A stretch of 64,000 bases of DNA, taken from Patescibacteria group bacterium. Its GTDB lineage: Bacteria; Patescibacteriota; Minisyncoccia; Phycocordibacterales; JBBUBG01. Positions 4,135 to 59,791 of the stretch are shown here, piece after piece. The stretch is taken from assembly GCA_040384765.1 (NCBI GenBank), contig JAZKIQ010000004.1, positions 71,424-135,423 on the forward strand, written 5' to 3'. The notes beneath the pieces are model-generated. The model saw nothing but the letters and a program-made list of their open reading frames with translations. It was not told where the DNA came from and made no database searches. The translations under genes were made by a program, and so were the position numbers. How positions within the stretch are numbered: position 1 is the first letter of the stretch; each line of letters starts with the position of its first letter.

Positions 4135-4243
4135 CCTCTTCTGGATGTGTCTTTTTGGAACACGGATATTTTTCTGGTGAAAAATTCCTCGAGCTCGCTT
4201 CGGCCAAGCTCGCTAGTTTCCAAAAAGACACATCCAGAAGAGG
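4135..4243 (-). repeat. Dispersed structured element, family A copy 1
   Basis: 26-bp perfect inverted arms (4135-4160 / 4218-4243) around core ACGGATA...TTCCTCGAG...CTAGT, shared with copies at 17982, 24831 and 59700. Confidence 0.9.
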
Positions 4244-17988: not shown

Positions 17989-18098
17989 ATAAAACAGTAT
18001 CTTTTTTGGAACACGGATATTTTTCTGGTGAAAAATTCCTCGAGCTCGCTTCGATCAAGCTCGCTAGTTTCCAAAAAAGATACTGTTTTATTTATTTG
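17982..18098 (-). repeat. Family A copy 2
   Basis: 30-bp perfect inverted arms (17982-18011 / 18069-18098); core nearly identical to copy 1. Confidence 0.9.
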
Positions 18099-24830: not shown

Positions 24831-24941
24831 GGCGCTCGCCACAGTTCCTTTTTGGAACACGGATAATTTTTTGCTAAAAATTTCCTCGAGCTCGCGCCGG
24901 TCGCGCTCCCTAGTTTCCAAAAAGGAACTGTGGCGAGCGCC
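24831..24941 (-). repeat. Family A copy 3
   Basis: 27-bp perfect inverted arms (24831-24857 / 24915-24941) around the family A core. Confidence 0.9.
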
Positions 24942-49840: not shown

Positions 49841-49864
49841 GTGTTAAAAATAGTACCACTTCAT

Positions 49865-50281
49865 ATGGAGAATCTCTCTCGTCTATGGACCGATATTCTT
49901 GAATCACGCCTCGGCGCGCTCTTCTTTGGTGTACCCATGATGCGCAATTCGGCCTTGTACGCCCTTGTTTGGTCGGGGTATGTTCTGCTCGCGTCGATCG
50001 ATTCGGCGTTTCGAGGGGAGCTCCCTCATGAGCTATGGCTTGCTACCGCAGGGCTTCCTCTTTTTATAGGCAACCTTCTTCCCTTTAAGAGCTTTGTAGC
50101 CGGGGCAGATCCGGAGGATACGCTCATCTTGCTCTACACTCTTGTGCCACTCCTCCTGTGGGTCATCTCCTTTGGGATTATCCACGGACTTTTTTTCTTT
50201 TTTGCCGCCCTCAACTCGGAGGCAGAGCGCCGCGTCATTATCTTCGAAACAGCTCGAGAGGCAGTAGCAAGTCCTGTTTAG
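49865..50281 (+). CDS. Membrane protein, hypothetical
   Basis: Hydrophobic 138-aa ORF. Confidence 0.6.
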   Translation: MENLSRLWTDILESRLGALFFGVPMMRNSALYALVWSGYVLLASIDSAFRGELPHELWLATAGLPLFIGNLLPFKSFVAGADPEDTLILLYTLVPLLLWVISFGIIHGLFFFFAALNSEAERRVIIFETAREAVASPV

Positions 50282-50952: not shown

Positions 50953-52758
50953 ATGAATATAAGAAACATTGCAATTATCGCCCACGTAGACCACGGCAAG
51001 ACCACTCTTGTTGATGCTTTGCTGCGGCAGTCGAACACCAAGCTTGCGAAAGAGGTGGCTGACTCGACCTGCATCATGGACTCAAACGAGCTTGAGAAGG
51101 AGCGCGGCATTACTATTTTTTCTAAAAATGCGAGCGTCTTCTGGAAGGATGTGAAGCTCAATATTATTGACACGCCAGGCCACGCCGACTTCGGTGGGGA
51201 GGTGGAGCGCGTACTTTCCATGACCGACGGTGCGCTTCTCTTGGTGGATGCAAAGGAGGGTCCTATGCCGCAGACTCGCTTCGTACTTAAAAAGGCGCTT
51301 GAGATGAAACTCAAGATTATTGTGGTGATCAACAAGGTAGACAAGTCCGACGCGCGCCCTGCTGTGGTTGTAGAGAAAGTGCTGGAGCTGTTTCTTGAGC
51401 TTGGAGCCGGAGAGAGCGCTCTCGATGTGCCGTTTGTGTATGCGGTGGCCCGCGAAGGCAAAGCTGGCCTTACGCCCGACATTCCTTCCATGAATGGCAT
51501 CGCTCCTATTTTTGATGCGATTCTTGAACATATTCCTGCGCCTACGGGAGATGCCTCAAAGCCTCTTCAGATGCTGGTCTCGTCGATTGTCGGCGACAAC
51601 TTCAAAGGCCGCATTGCTATTGGCCGTATTTATAACGGTGTGATCCACGCTGCCGAGCAGGTGATGCATATTAACCGCAGTGGTGAGATGAAGCCATATC
51701 GCCTTACATCGCTCATGACCTTTTCGGGCCTTGATCGCTTGGAAGCAAAGGAGGCATCTGCGGGAGATATTGTTTCAATCGCTGGAATTCCTGATATTAC
51801 GATTGGTGAGACGATTGCCGATCTCGCTACGCCTGTCGCACTTCCTCTTCTTGATATCGAAGAGCCAACGGTGAAGATGACCTTCAAGATCAACGACTCT
51901 CCGTTTGCAGGGAAGGAGGGGACATACTCTACTTCACGCCAGATCCGCGCACGCCTTATGAAAGAGCTTGAGACCGATATGGCGCTTCGCGTGGAAGATG
52001 GTCCTGATAACACATGGGTTGTAGCTGGCCGCGGAGAGCTTCACCTGGCTATTGTCATCGAGCGCCTGCGTCGCGATGGGTTTGAATTTGCCGTTTCTCG
52101 TCCGCAGGTGATCGTGAAAGAGGTGAATGAGGTAAAGATGGTGCCGTACGAAAAAGCGTATATCGAAGTGCCAGATCAGTTTGCGGGCGCGGTGATCCAA
52201 AAGCTAGGCAGCCGCCAGGGAGAGATGGCCGAGATGCGCTCAGAAAACGGGATCACATTTCTTGAATTTATCATTCCGACACGTGGCCTCTTTGGCTACC
52301 GCAGTGATCTCCTTACCGACTCGAAAGGGCTCGGCATCATCAATACGTCATTTCTTGAGTACCGACCTGAGCGTGGCGGCTTCCCTGAGCGTGCTAATGG
52401 CTCGCTGGTGGCCTTTGAGACGGGTGAGACGCGCCTCTTTGGCCTTCTCGCTGTGCAAGACCGTGGCGTGCTCTTCATTGGGCCGGCAGTACAGGTGTAC
52501 AAGGGGCAGGTGGTGGGTAAGAACTCTCGTGTGGAAGACCTGCCAGTAAACGTATGTAAAGAGAAGCAGCTTTCAAACATGCGCTCCAAAGGTGATGGTC
52601 CTGCAGAGAACCATGTGCCTCCAAAAATTATGAATCTTGAAGAGGCGCTTGAATATATCGGAGACGACGAGCTTGTGGAGGTGACGCCAAAGAGCGTACG
52701 TATCCGCAAGATGGTGCTCGATGAGAATGAGGCCCGAAGAAAAGCACGAGGAATGTAG
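50953..52758 (+). CDS. typA: Translational GTPase TypA/BipA
   Basis: IRNIAIIAHVDHGKTT, DTPGHADFGGEVER, GRGELHL, ELVEVTPKSVRIRK. Confidence 0.98.
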   Translation: MNIRNIAIIAHVDHGKTTLVDALLRQSNTKLAKEVADSTCIMDSNELEKERGITIFSKNASVFWKDVKLNIIDTPGHADFGGEVERVLSMTDGALLLVDAKEGPMPQTRFVLKKALEMKLKIIVVINKVDKSDARPAVVVEKVLELFLELGAGESALDVPFVYAVAREGKAGLTPDIPSMNGIAPIFDAILEHIPAPTGDASKPLQMLVSSIVGDNFKGRIAIGRIYNGVIHAAEQVMHINRSGEMKPYRLTSLMTFSGLDRLEAKEASAGDIVSIAGIPDITIGETIADLATPVALPLLDIEEPTVKMTFKINDSPFAGKEGTYSTSRQIRARLMKELETDMALRVEDGPDNTWVVAGRGELHLAIVIERLRRDGFEFAVSRPQVIVKEVNEVKMVPYEKAYIEVPDQFAGAVIQKLGSRQGEMAEMRSENGITFLEFIIPTRGLFGYRSDLLTDSKGLGIINTSFLEYRPERGGFPERANGSLVAFETGETRLFGLLAVQDRGVLFIGPAVQVYKGQVVGKNSRVEDLPVNVCKEKQLSNMRSKGDGPAENHVPPKIMNLEEALEYIGDDELVEVTPKSVRIRKMVLDENEARRKARGM

Positions 52759-52793
52759 AAATAAAAAAAGCGCCGTAAGGCGCTTTTTTATTT
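52759..52793 (+). terminator. Intrinsic terminator after typA
   Basis: aaaaaagcgcc-gtaa-ggcgctttttt. Confidence 0.85.
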
Positions 52794-52841
52794 GCTAGAC
52801 TTCTTACCCTGGCTGGTATTAATATCTATACAAGTTTGATT

Positions 52842-53051
52842 CGGGACGTGGTGTAACGGTAACATTCACGAGATGGGGTCGAATCTTTTGTCGGGCTATA
52901 GTGTAACGGTAACATTCACGATTCGGGTTCGTGAGACTCTGGGTTCAAATCCCAGTAGCCCGACAAAAGATTTGACGGGAATGCCCCAAGCGCATTCCCC
53001 GGATTTTCAGCAGAAAATGTGAGACTCCGGGTTCAAATCCCGGCGTCCCGA
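52842..53051 (+). tRNA. Interrupted (outer) tRNA-Pro; halves 52842-52880 and 53019-53051; anticodon most likely TGG
   Basis: Joined halves give a 72-nt cloverleaf: acceptor CGGGACG/CGTCCCG-A, D stem GTGT/ACAT, anticodon stem CACGA/TC^GTG with loop GATGGGG, T arm CCGGG-TTCAAAT-CCCGG. Position 33 is A rather than U, so a GGG reading or pseudogene status cannot be excluded. Confidence 0.7.
52892..52963 (+). tRNA. tRNA-Pro(CGG), intact, nested in the outer tRNA
   Basis: Acceptor CGGGCTA/TAGCCCG-A, D stem GTGT/ACAT, anticodon arm CACGA-TT CGG GT-TCGTG, T arm CTGGG-TTCAAAT-CCCAG; CCA not encoded. Confidence 0.93.
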
Positions 53052-53186
53052 CTGAGCAAGGCGAAGGAGCGGAGGAGAAAATGCCCTGCGGCATTTTTGT
53101 TCGGTATTTGAAGGACTTTTCAATGTCGAGCAATGCGAGACGTGAAAAGTACCCGCGACGGTAGTCGAAAATCCCGGCGTCCCGAC
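53035..53186 (+). repeat. 18-bp direct repeat of the tRNA 3' end bracketing a structured spacer
   Basis: aaatcccggcgtcccgac at 53035-53052 and 53169-53186. Confidence 0.85.
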
Positions 53187-53308
53187 ATTTTGACGGTTTG
53201 TGATCTGCGTTCTACCATAGAGCTTTTATTTGACAGGTATAACGGTTGAGGTAGATAATATCTCCATTAATTAACAAGGTCGAACGAAGCAAGTAATCAG
53301 AGTAAGAT

Positions 53309-53980
53309 ATGACGAACTACAAGCGAGGATCAACAGCGGCGGTACTCGTATCAGCAGTCGTGGGTCTTTTGGTAGGATACGGAATCGCACGCGGTACGAA
53401 TGGAAGCGCTGTGCCAGCAGGTGACATGGCGCCAACCTCTGTTTCGAAAGCAGCAGATCTCCGTGTTGTGCTCAATGCTATTGAGCGACAGCACGTAGAC
53501 CTCGCTTCAACAGCTGTGCGCAACGCCTTTGATGGCAGCGCAGACACAAACGCATCAGTGGATGCCCTATCGGCAAACACGAAGCGTCTTTCAGATGCAG
53601 TAGCAAGTGTATACGGAGCAGAGGCTGGGAAGAAATTCTCGGACATCTGGTCGAGCCACATCGGCTTCTTCGTAGACTATACGCTCGCTGCAAAGGCTGG
53701 CGATAAAGCAAAGATGGACAAAGCAGTGCAGAACCTCGGTGGATACGCAGATGCGGTCTCCGATTTTCTCTCACAGGCTAACCCAAACTTGCCTCGCGAA
53801 GCAGTGCACGGTCTCGTAATGCAGCACATTGGCCACCTCAAGGGTGCAGTTGATGCATACGGCCGGAAAGATTATGCCGGATCGTACACCGCTCAGTCTG
53901 AGGCGTACGAGCAGATTGGCAAAATTGCAGATGCGATCGCGGAAGCTATCGTAAAGCAGAAGCCAGAAGCGTTCAACTAG
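53309..53980 (+). CDS. Membrane-anchored helical His-containing protein (family often labelled copper amine oxidase-like)
   Basis: AADLRVVLN..QHV, YGAEAG..F..IWSSHIGFFVDY, QHIGHL; lacks the size and motifs of a true amine oxidase. Confidence 0.7.
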   Translation: MTNYKRGSTAAVLVSAVVGLLVGYGIARGTNGSAVPAGDMAPTSVSKAADLRVVLNAIERQHVDLASTAVRNAFDGSADTNASVDALSANTKRLSDAVASVYGAEAGKKFSDIWSSHIGFFVDYTLAAKAGDKAKMDKAVQNLGGYADAVSDFLSQANPNLPREAVHGLVMQHIGHLKGAVDAYGRKDYAGSYTAQSEAYEQIGKIADAIAEAIVKQKPEAFN

Positions 53981-54036: not shown

Positions 54037-54079
54037 TTCTTTGCTAAAAGAGAGGTAAACCCTCTCTTTTAGCAAAGAA
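54037..54079. terminator. Perfect long hairpin, terminator-like
   Basis: ttctttgctaaaagagagg-taaac-cctctcttttagcaaagaa. Confidence 0.6.
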
Positions 54080-54112
54080 GTTATGCATAAAAACCGTTTG
54101 CAGATTACTTGA

Positions 54113-54269
54113 TTGCCTAGCGTAGTGAGAGAAATGAAAAGAGTACTTTTTATTTCCGAACGAGCGACGGCAAAAAAGGGCAGATACCCCGCCGCTTTGC
54201 GGCGCCCCGTACAAACAGTACACTGGTTGTACGGGGCGGGGGCTTGTCCCGGGGTTAATACCCTTTATT
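54113..54269 (+). repeat. Family B copy 4 with second module
   Basis: B core 54113-54173 plus the module shared with 36841-36934. Confidence 0.88.
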
Positions 54270-54287
54270 CGTTCCCATACTATATTT

Positions 54288-54734
54288 ATGAACAACAAAG
54301 CACTTGGCATTGGCGTAGTAGTCGTTATTATCATCGGTCTCTTCCTTCTCATGCCGAAGGGTACTGAGGCTCCTGCCGACAACAATGGCGCAGCGCCTGT
54401 ATCGGGGGGCACAGGATCTTCTGACACCACGACTGGTACCTCAGTAGATGTGTCCGCTACTGTATCTACAACCGTTGGAGCAGGACAGGTTGCCGCATCG
54501 ATCAAAGGATATGCTTTCGCTCCCGGAGTTATCAAAGTAAAGAAGGGGACCACTGTCACCTGGACTAACATGGATTCAGTTGGCCACAGCGTCGTTGCAG
54601 ATTCAGGAAAGTGGACGAGCGATCTTCTTGCAAAAGGCCAGACCTACTCGTACACCTTTGATGCAGTTGGAACGGTGGCATACCACTGCGGCCCACATCC
54701 ATACATGAAGGGTACTGTTGAGGTTACTGAATAG
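54288..54734 (+). CDS. Membrane-anchored cupredoxin (plastocyanin/amicyanin-like)
   Basis: GTTVTWTN, HSV, type-1 Cu loop YHCGPHPYMKG. Confidence 0.93.
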   Translation: MNNKALGIGVVVVIIIGLFLLMPKGTEAPADNNGAAPVSGGTGSSDTTTGTSVDVSATVSTTVGAGQVAASIKGYAFAPGVIKVKKGTTVTWTNMDSVGHSVVADSGKWTSDLLAKGQTYSYTFDAVGTVAYHCGPHPYMKGTVEVTE

Positions 54735-54740
54735 CATTTC

Positions 54741-55169
54741 GTGACAGAGCTTTTTCGCCACATCTGGAAAAAGGTGCTCGTGGTGTTCGTTTTTGCGATT
54801 GCCGCTGGTTTTATTATTGCAAAAACAACGTCACCTGAAGCCCCTGTTGCTGGGAACGAGCTTGAAGAGGCGACGCCAGCGGTTGTTGTTCGTCTGCTTC
54901 CGCTTGGTCCGGACCCCAAAGAGGTCACGGTCGCCCGCGGATCTATAGTTGAGTTTGCGGCTCGTGATGGCAAACTCCACGATCTTCGCGAGGGGGAGCC
55001 CGATCTCCATGAAGCGGCGCCCTCCAAAAAGGAAGGCTATCAGTCGGGAGTTTTTGCTCCAGACGAGGCCTACCGGGTGCGTTTTGACCGAGTCGGGGAG
55101 TTCGTCTTCCACGACCACCTTAATCTTAAGACAGTGATATATATTCACGTCTATGAACCAACCTCTTGA
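54741..55169 (+). CDS. Cupredoxin-fold protein lacking the Cys ligand
   Basis: PKEVTVARGSIVEF, HDL, GEFVFHDHLN. Confidence 0.7.
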   Translation: MTELFRHIWKKVLVVFVFAIAAGFIIAKTTSPEAPVAGNELEEATPAVVVRLLPLGPDPKEVTVARGSIVEFAARDGKLHDLREGEPDLHEAAPSKKEGYQSGVFAPDEAYRVRFDRVGEFVFHDHLNLKTVIYIHVYEPTS

Positions 55170-55695
55170 TACAGCGCCGGTAGAATCGTTCTGGAACCCG
55201 ATTCGTCGCATGTTCGCCTTGTGGGTCGTTGTATTGCTCATTGGGTTCTACGGGACACAATACGGACAGGATAAAGGTCCTACTACGACGAACGTGATCT
55301 GGCTCGTGCTCGGTCTCCTTGGGGTCGGGTATATGAAAAAGGTGATGCCATTTTCTGATCCGGTCTACGGTCCTCCAAACAAGAAGATCTTCTGGGCGTG
55401 GTTTGCGATCGTTTTCGGCGGCATTGCGCTTACGCAGGCCTCTTTCTACTACCAGCCGCTCACTATGTTTGTGCCGTATCTTGGCGCACTCTGGCTCTTT
55501 CTCATGGCTCTTGGTCATGCGATTACCGGACTCGTCGACAAGAAGAGCCTTGCAAACGTGTACGCAGCAACGACAGTGCTCCAGGTTCTCGCAGGACTCT
55601 TTATTATCTTCGTACCAATGCTGATGGGTCCGCAGTTTCTCTTTGCTGGTGTGGTAAGTGCGCTCGCCATGGTTCTACTCATTGCATTCGCTTAG
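55153..55695 (+). CDS. Six-TM membrane protein, hypothetical
   Basis: Hydrophobic throughout; overlaps the upstream gene. Confidence 0.75.
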   Translation: MNQPLDTAPVESFWNPIRRMFALWVVVLLIGFYGTQYGQDKGPTTTNVIWLVLGLLGVGYMKKVMPFSDPVYGPPNKKIFWAWFAIVFGGIALTQASFYYQPLTMFVPYLGALWLFLMALGHAITGLVDKKSLANVYAATTVLQVLAGLFIIFVPMLMGPQFLFAGVVSALAMVLLIAFA

Positions 55696-59699: not shown

Positions 59700-59791
59700 G
59701 GTTTTACCTTTTGAAAGACTAGATGAGGCGACGGCCGAATCTCGAGGAAATTTCTAGTAAGAAATTATCCGTACTTTCAAAAGGTAAAACC
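59700..59791 (+). repeat. Family A copy 4 (divergent, opposite orientation)
   Basis: 18-bp arms ggttttaccttttgaaag / ctttcaaaaggtaaaacc around ACTAG...CTCGAGGAA...TATCCGT. Confidence 0.82.

Follow-up and report, generated by a model that had tools for sequence, protein, structure and literature searches.

We analyzed a stretch of 64,000 nucleotides (nt) of contig JAZKIQ010000004.1 from a patescibacterial genome assembly (GCA_040384765.1; the whole stretch is referred to as the window) and found an intact tRNA-Pro(CGG) gene inside the anticodon arm of a second, tRNA-Pro(TGG)-like gene, the two parts of which lie at 52842-52881 and 53019-53051. The source genome of the window, denoted G000, has 12 contigs totaling 0.82 Mb, with a completeness of 99.8%. 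We conclude that the nest probably arose by an insertion or replacement at the DNA level that left a decaying outer gene, and that it is not a gene split at the RNA level. The arrangement, termed N1, runs in the order outer 5′ part, x, inner tRNA, x′, hairpin 1, hairpin 2, and outer 3′ part, with the following features:

52842-52881, + strand: 5′ part of the outer tRNA-Pro, with acceptor 5′ strand CGGGACG, D arm, 5′ strand of the anticodon stem, and the loop GATGGGG.
52878-52891, + strand: x, the 5′ strand of a 14-base pair (bp) stem that prolongs the inner acceptor stem (inverted repeat, covariation in nine nests).
52892-52963, + strand: inner tRNA-Pro(CGG), intact (Rfam tRNA model and ARAGORN).
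52963-52976, + strand: x′, the 3′ strand of the extension stem, the first base of which is the discriminator A (inverted repeat, covariation, and fold).
52977-52999, + strand: hairpin 1 (GGGAATGC / GCATTCCC; seen in the fold and formed in 8 of 9 homologous nests).
53003-53018, + strand: hairpin 2 (ATTTTC AGCA GAAAAT; fold and homologous nests).
53019-53051, + strand: 3′ part of the outer tRNA-Pro, with the end of the anticodon stem, variable loop, T arm, acceptor 3′ strand CGTCCCG, and discriminator A.

A preliminary description of this DNA had reported a tRNA gene nested in a tRNA gene, and all of the sequence features that it listed were present when positions 52700-53200 were read, as was typA upstream. 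The inner gene was confirmed as a complete tRNA-Pro(CGG) by two programs; the Rfam tRNA model (RF00005) gave 63.4 bits at a gathering score of 29, as for a standard tRNA, and ARAGORN read Pro(CGG) at 52892-52964. It accounts for 72 nt of the 138-nt insert, leaving ∼66 nt of non-tRNA sequence. In a repeat comparison of the window, the outer and inner 5′ parts were 80% identical at a spacing of 50 and the 3′ parts were 85% identical. The acceptor stems are CGGGACG/CGTCCCG for the outer gene and CGGGCTA/TAGCCCG for the inner gene, the corresponding T stems are CCGGG/CCCGG and CTGGG/CCCAG, and the outer strands pair with each other only. The compensated stems thus identify the outer halves as cognate partners, as proposed earlier, but they do not show that the outer gene is working today. 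The outer stems were inherited from an ordinary tRNA-Pro(TGG) with this acceptor stem, which is found on intact genes of two relatives (G033 and G025) and of a second organism in sequencing run X1; the uninterrupted tRNA of that organism also has the ends of the outer gene. When the outer halves were joined in silico, ARAGORN read a tRNA-Pro(TGG), and reading the loop as GATGGGG bore out its noncanonical G32 and A33 in place of the usual pyrimidine-32 and U33.

Two details of the earlier account were revised. The insert does lie in the anticodon arm, but not at position 40/41; the alignment of nine nests places the 5′ junction after the anticodon-loop GGGG, a position that is hidden in the window because TCG/G is shared there. 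The inner acceptor stem is indeed extended, by 14 bp and not by 10 bp: an inverted repeat pairs 52878-52891 with 52963-52976 with one G-U, and adding the inner acceptor stem gives a 21-nt repeat with 95% complementarity. The outer 5′ part ends at 52881, its final 4 nt (GTCG) double as the base of this long stem, and 10 nt separate it from the inner tRNA, which starts at 52892. The two hairpins reported behind the inner tRNA were found within the 55 nt that separate it from the outer 3′ part. The predicted fold of the 211-nt locus is a tRNA on a stalk within another tRNA (−92.5 kcal/mol, z-score −6.3), and none of 200 shuffled sequences folded as well. A promoter scan directly upstream of 52842 revealed no consensus promoter.

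Misassembly had been raised as a concern for this locus, and an artefact in which two similar tRNA-Pro genes were interleaved wrongly can be set aside with near certainty. The genome is metagenome-assembled and has contig ends at tRNA genes (C2 begins inside tRNA-Cys), which would favor such an artefact; tRNA loci may break the assembly, perhaps through their repeats. Against it, an independent assembler produced the identical sequence: the sole run containing it (X1, a DNA run that is possibly the source sample itself) yielded a 3046-nt Logan contig with 0 differences over 52400-53600 at a depth of 9. Homologous nests with the same architecture and covarying stems were present in assemblies of other studies, and misassembly is therefore very unlikely.

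The stalk is conserved as a structure. For nine N1 nests we aligned the 15 bp of the stalk beside the inner tRNA (135 cells); 96.3% of the cells were paired, 10 of the 15 pairs were altered on both sides, none of 500 shuffles paired as highly, and slid registers gave 36-47%. Hairpin 2 forms in most of the nests, the stem sequences of both hairpins differ among nests, and the two nests of relative G034 show a compensatory G-C to A-T change within the hairpin 2 stem. A leader-trailer stem that continues the acceptor stem was found for only 2 of the 43 tRNAs of G000, both of them nested (14 of 14 and 10 of 14 positions, with 8 for the next best). At C7:1100-1560 of the same genome, an intact tRNA-Ile(GAT) with a ∼20-bp stalk lies inside an outer tRNA-Ile, the 5′ part of which has a D loop broken by a copy of a dispersed repeat (described below) and carries an inverted D-arm segment. 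Orphan 5′ pieces were also seen upstream of the tRNA-Thr(TGT) and tRNA-Ala(CGC) genes.

The corresponding site without the block was found in congeners. In genus g74, G295 has a full nest with outer acceptor stem CGGGGCG/CGCCCCG and inner acceptor stem CGGGATG/CATCCCG, and the inner gene differs from the uninterrupted g74 gene in its T loop as well as in its acceptor stem. At the G170 locus, the upstream 428 nt (86% identity to G295) abut the downstream 164 nt (91%), and the 137 nt comprising x, inner tRNA, x′, and hairpins are absent relative to G295. Both G170 and G240 possess an uninterrupted tRNA-Pro(TGG), the acceptor stem of which is that of the G295 outer gene. In G073, a degenerate outer 5′ part, x, and the inner gene run straight into the common downstream flank; this half nest looks like the product of a recombination between inner and outer 3′ ends that removed the rest. 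Because g74 includes uninterrupted, full-nest, and half-nest species, the 137-nt block is a presence/absence difference. In genus g107, the inner gene of G354 is 95% identical to that of G397 and stands on a 12-bp x/x′ stem; the outer 5′ part survives only as debris, and the outer 3′ part is gone.

The outer genes decay, and every locus retains an intact inner gene. At the 12 loci having both outer parts, these were joined by script and submitted to ARAGORN, which called a standard tRNA at 7, an aberrant tRNA at 2, and none at 3; of the 7 standard calls, 1 was misjoined and 2, in the N2 architecture described below, depended on filler bases. On inspection by eye, the outer T loops of loci L160 and L170 contained extra insertions, the outer acceptor of L170 was unpaired, and that of L166 was without its 3′ strand. 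Outer parts were lost in G073, G354, L171, and G397 with the inner gene retained, the outer genes of N2 have no anticodon, and in most relatives the junctions fail to rebuild a clean anticodon stem. Judged as a functional tRNA, by a canonical loop and intactness in relatives, the outer gene fails. The window copy is a mosaic, with acceptor and T stems of the tRNA-Pro(TGG) type that is intact in G033, G025, and the second organism of run X1, and with the D loop, anticodon stem, and variable loop of the inner gene. A mosaic of this kind fits in-place gene conversion, or else a nest that arrived by homologous recombination and used its outer parts as arms.

Among its 43 tRNA genes, G000 has the inner gene as the only Pro(CGG) found in the assembly. 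The genome-wide search identified a separate, intact tRNA-Pro(TGG) at C4:50136-50209, so the interrupted gene is not the sole Pro(TGG). No tRNA-Asn was found in G000 by ARAGORN with and without introns, Rfam, or an anticodon-arm scan, and it probably lies in a gap because contigs end at tRNA genes. ARAGORN did not find a tmRNA in G000, and the Rfam tRNA model added no further tRNA.

The nest recurs within the order. A BLAST search of the locus against 60 relatives found the arrangement at two places in G034 and, in G010, a more compact form. When the order's 401 genomes were scanned for a pair of tRNA-Pro D arms spaced by 30-62 nt, 14 matched (3 for the reversed control), and 11 of 15 places, in 10 genomes, were judged on inspection to be nested or half-nested tRNA-Pro genes. 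The N1 architecture accounts for 8 loci in 7 of these genomes (among them G000, G034 with two, G295, G276, G287, and G397), and G052 has a half nest; the N1 5′ half consists of the outer 5′ part up to the anticodon-loop GGGG, x ending in GT, and the inner tRNA, and the N1 3′ half of x′, CC, hairpin 1, G-NGG, hairpin 2, and the outer 3′ part. In the N2 architecture (G010, G247, and G308) the outer anticodon loop is replaced altogether; the congeners of G247, only 64-74% identical, were too divergent for an empty-site comparison. Metagenomes contributed 10 contigs with the N1 signature, 4 of which duplicate the G034 or G295 loci and 2 of which are mutually identical. One metagenome contig (L172, the same as L176) holds a doubly nested tRNA-Pro in the ∼300 nt around its tRNA-Pro(CGG). 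The second layer, beyond the first outer 3′ part, has another stalk strand, which complements the bases immediately before the outer 5′ part, as well as another pair of hairpins 1 and 2 and a third 3′ part that is degenerate. At the class level, the exact N1 pattern, which overlooks diverged nests and did not catch G073, was present in 1 of 401 genomes (G000 only; ∼380 were from other orders), and the N1 5′-junction pattern had no match in viral contigs. N1 blocks occupy nonorthologous loci, namely a Val-Pro(CGG)-Ala cluster, an Arg-Gly-Pro(TGG) cluster, and the region downstream of typA. Comparison of the last locus in relatives, which the preliminary description had proposed, gave no equivalent: a tRNA-Pro was within 1.5 kb at 0 of 29 typA loci, one of which has a tRNA-Gln. 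A tblastn search with four window proteins found no match at 24 nested and un-nested tRNA-Pro loci.

On the basis of the sequence comparisons, we propose that a ∼138-nt block (x, tRNA-Pro, x′, hairpin 1, and hairpin 2) would enter an older gene of the tRNA-Pro(TGG) type at its anticodon arm. The inner tRNA would then be the working gene, with a precursor in which the acceptor stem continues into a stalk of ∼21 bp; release of the tRNA would fall to RNase P and an enzyme for 3′ processing, perhaps after a double-strand RNase opens the stalk. The outer pieces would be remnants of the displaced gene that are not rejoined, decay, and are lost piecemeal, and the N1 family would enter, or be copied into, different tRNA-Pro genes (TGG and CGG) within one order. 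The preliminary description had offered, as one of two explanations, a small element that carried a tRNA into its paralogue and inactivated it, and this one is favored by the block-free congeners, the decaying outer genes, and the intact Pro(TGG) elsewhere. The block itself is presumably mobile, and the hairpins may have a function. Our best guess is that whole and half nests spread by homologous recombination through the ∼35-nt outer arms after a rare founding event; an alternative is a structure-dependent mechanism supplied in trans. A further-reaching version, which we put forward tentatively and consider doubtful, is a “homing tRNA,” a protein-less structured cassette of ∼140 nt with a tRNA as cargo that enters the cognate anticodon arm. 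The resident copy would be destroyed and the cassette would thereby become indispensable, the stalk and hairpins would be recognized as RNA or single-stranded DNA by a host or trans-acting activity, and the 5′ and 3′ orphans that lie in layers at many tRNA loci of this order would be fossils of repeated replacements.

Several observations weigh against an insertion that displaced the outer gene. No recombinase, transposase, or reverse transcriptase able to move the block was found in G000: the single tyrosine recombinase (PF00589, C4:42940-43464) is ∼80 kb from the nest with none adjacent, and there were no RVT_1, TnpB-type, IS110-type, or Y1 transposase matches. The nest junctions share only 1-2 nt (G in the window, TT in G034). 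The N1 hairpin module has no other copy in G000, and N1 is therefore unlike a dispersed repeat here. The difference in g74 may be a gain in G295 and G073 or a precise loss in G170 and G240. The window outer copy retains perfect acceptor, D, anticodon, and T stems, which could mean that the event is recent, that the inner copy has converted the outer one, or that some constraint acts. An element downstream of the G295 nest ends in an inner-type 3′ end, x′, and the first bases of hairpin 1, with 31 of 33 nt matching, and x′ may be an old native trailer rather than cargo because x′-like sequence follows the downstream 3′-end copies in both G295 and the window. The history is thus more layered than a single insertion, and the processing of the precursor and the fate of the outer pieces are predictions from DNA sequence.

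The other explanation in the preliminary description, a spliced or split tRNA in which one precursor gives an inner Pro(CGG) and an outer Pro(TGG) by ligation or as two pieces, is highly improbable. It would account for the pairing of all four outer stems in the window and the Pro(TGG) reading of the joined halves, for the equally clean joined outers of L168 (in G034) and L172, and for a 5′ junction at the 3′ end of the anticodon loop, near the site of archaeal and eukaryal introns. Set against these points are the G32/A33 loop, the intact Pro(TGG) elsewhere in G000, the uninterrupted gene of the congeners, the N2 outers without anticodon, the loss of outer parts beside intact inner genes at the four places named above, and the 5 of 12 joined outers that were aberrant or unrecognizable. 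Nor were the enzymes found in the 99.8% complete genome: the tRNA splicing endonuclease family (tRNA_int_endo, PF01974) gave 0 matches in G000 with a control positive in four archaea, and RtcB gave 0 matches with a control positive in 10 of 14 genomes, other ligase families not having been searched. No bulge-helix-bulge was seen at the junctions by eye in the sequence or fold, a dedicated motif search not having been made. Archaeal-type splicing was rejected on the two enzyme searches, and group I self-splicing on the 138-nt length of the insert and a search of 52700-53400 (E up to 10) in which the Rfam group I models found nothing.

Local rearrangement with no mobile block, by template switching or unequal recombination between tandem copies of the tRNA and flanks rich in hairpins, followed by gene conversion, vertical inheritance, and frequent loss, is unlikely, although less so than a functional split gene. 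Inner and outer copies are near-identical outside the acceptor stem at L168 and fully identical at L159 and L160, x′ resembles a native trailer behind the downstream 3′-end copy in the window and G295, and ∼23 of the 43 G000 tRNAs have nearby partial duplicates, so that local duplication is common. On the other side, homologous x, x′, and hairpins 1 and 2 occur at nonorthologous loci, the 29 typA loci of relatives are without a tRNA-Pro, the two nests of G034 are (by eye) mutually closest relatives, and the inner acceptor stem in g74 is unlike that of the uninterrupted gene of congeners. We also considered and rejected known types of element. A tyrosine-integrase element would not fit the lack of an adjacent integrase or junctions without an attachment (att) core repeat. 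For a miniature inverted-repeat or other insertion sequence-derived element, x/x′ flanks the inner tRNA and not the block ends, with no direct target duplication and no transposase. Copying from a mature tRNA was dismissed, as the downstream 3′-end copies have CCA only where the gene encodes CCA.

The sequence immediately downstream of the nest contains three more features:

53052-53168, + strand: second structured element (“D1” type), with hairpins at 53078-53097, 53115-53150, and 53156-53167 and no Rfam match.
53169-53186, + strand: third copy of the outer 3′ end (T-stem 3′ strand, acceptor 3′ strand, and discriminator), identical to 53035-53052 at 18 of 18 nt.
53187-53196, + strand: ATTTTGACGG, behind the third copy, resembling the x′/hairpin-1 junction ATTTGACGG at 52970-52978.

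The third copy, which was overlooked in the preliminary description, closes the second structured element, and the likeness of ATTTTGACGG to x′ has a much clearer parallel in G295 than in the window. Homologues of 53052-53168 (BLAST query positions 283-360) were found in G003, G047, G057, G002, G008, and G033, where they follow tRNA-Glu, Arg, Asp, Ala, and Pro genes. An element of ∼130 nt of this kind (53052-53186 in the window; L007, L015, L016, L018, L024, L030, L031, and L032) follows several tRNA isotypes in several families. It consists of a complement of the acceptor 3′ strand, a hairpin (GCAAACTGCTTTGC type), a complement of the T-stem 3′ strand, two covarying hairpins, and a copy of the tRNA 3′ end, which in one case extends through the terminator; it has no Rfam match. 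Because such elements begin with an exact Watson-Crick complement of the tRNA 3′ part, the G3-U70 of tRNA-Ala becomes A-U. The partial duplicates of the ∼23 G000 tRNAs are direct or inverted and lie within 350 nt, and many tRNAs are followed by structured elements ending in a copy of their own 3′ part. At C2:7405-7800, four copies of the tRNA-Tyr 3′ end lie downstream of the gene (offsets 99, 187, 253, and 308), separated by pieces of structured elements as if serial events had taken place at one gene.

One core type of the structured elements is a dispersed repeat, for which an iterated profile search of the 0.82 Mb gave 44 hits at E ≤ 1 (31 at E < 1e-6); the window copies, at 4160-4214, 18011-18064, 24857-24909, and 59736-59772, have no Rfam match. 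One subfamily sits at the tips of long, perfect, locus-specific inverted repeats, several with terminator-like A and T runs; where the locus is a tRNA gene, the 3′ part of that tRNA supplies the flanking repeat. The dispersed-repeat hairpin and N1 hairpin 2 are alike by eye only, and neither profile finds the other. Viral copies of the repeat were considered and attributed to chance, with 90 matches to a 15-nt core of which 1 weakly fits the profile (E = 3e-4). Four predicted open reading frames near the nest, at 53309-53977 (+), 54047-54571 (−), 55153-55692 (+), and 49841-50278 (+), had no Pfam match at E up to 0.001.

These findings point to a route of bacterial tRNA gene replacement in which a whole tRNA gene comes to lie within its homologue, with decay of the old gene that surrounds it. 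Nests and orphan halves are invisible in annotations because gene finders report the inner gene only, and unseen nests can distort the numbers of tRNA genes and pseudogenes that are counted. Should the block prove truly mobile, its sole cargo would be the gene that it disrupts, which would make it a selfish element. The covarying stalk with its hairpins offers a small RNA or DNA structure that can be tested. Partial duplicates at about half of the tRNA loci, together with structured elements absent from Rfam, are unexpected in a streamlined genome of 0.82 Mb. The literature listings and abstracts that we consulted contained no report of a tRNA nested in a tRNA or of split or disrupted tRNAs in these bacteria.

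Among known systems, integrative elements such as phages and islands use tRNA genes as insertion sites and bring along a substitute for the 3′ segment that they displace. The nest resembles them in its tRNA target, in the retention of function by the incoming tRNA sequence, in the displaced pieces that remain as repeats, and in the serial 3′-end copies (53035-53052 and 53169-53186; four after tRNA-Tyr). It differs in the block length of ∼138 nt, in encoding no protein, in carrying an entire tRNA gene, and in leaving both 5′ and 3′ orphans, with the 1-2 nt shared at its junctions in place of an att core and no integrase beside it. Group I introns, which are usually >200 nt, also occur in anticodon loops of bacterial tRNA genes and are alike in being an intervening sequence in that region, whereas the nest, with ∼66 nt of non-tRNA sequence, has no group I core; it gives no sign of splicing because its exons decay in relatives. 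Archaeal and eukaryal tRNA introns and split or permuted tRNA genes are processed at bulge-helix-bulge motifs. They share with the nest a site beside the anticodon loop and, for split tRNAs, a long stem that joins the halves, but here the host is a bacterium in which endonuclease and RtcB were not found and the intervening sequence is itself a tRNA. The intervening sequences in helices of bacterial rRNA are removed by RNase III without religation, and the fragmented rRNA works. The nest likewise has a long stem at the tip of a helix, and its removal would fragment the host RNA; unlike the rRNA, a tRNA cut in the anticodon arm is unlikely to work, and the host gene of the nest decays.
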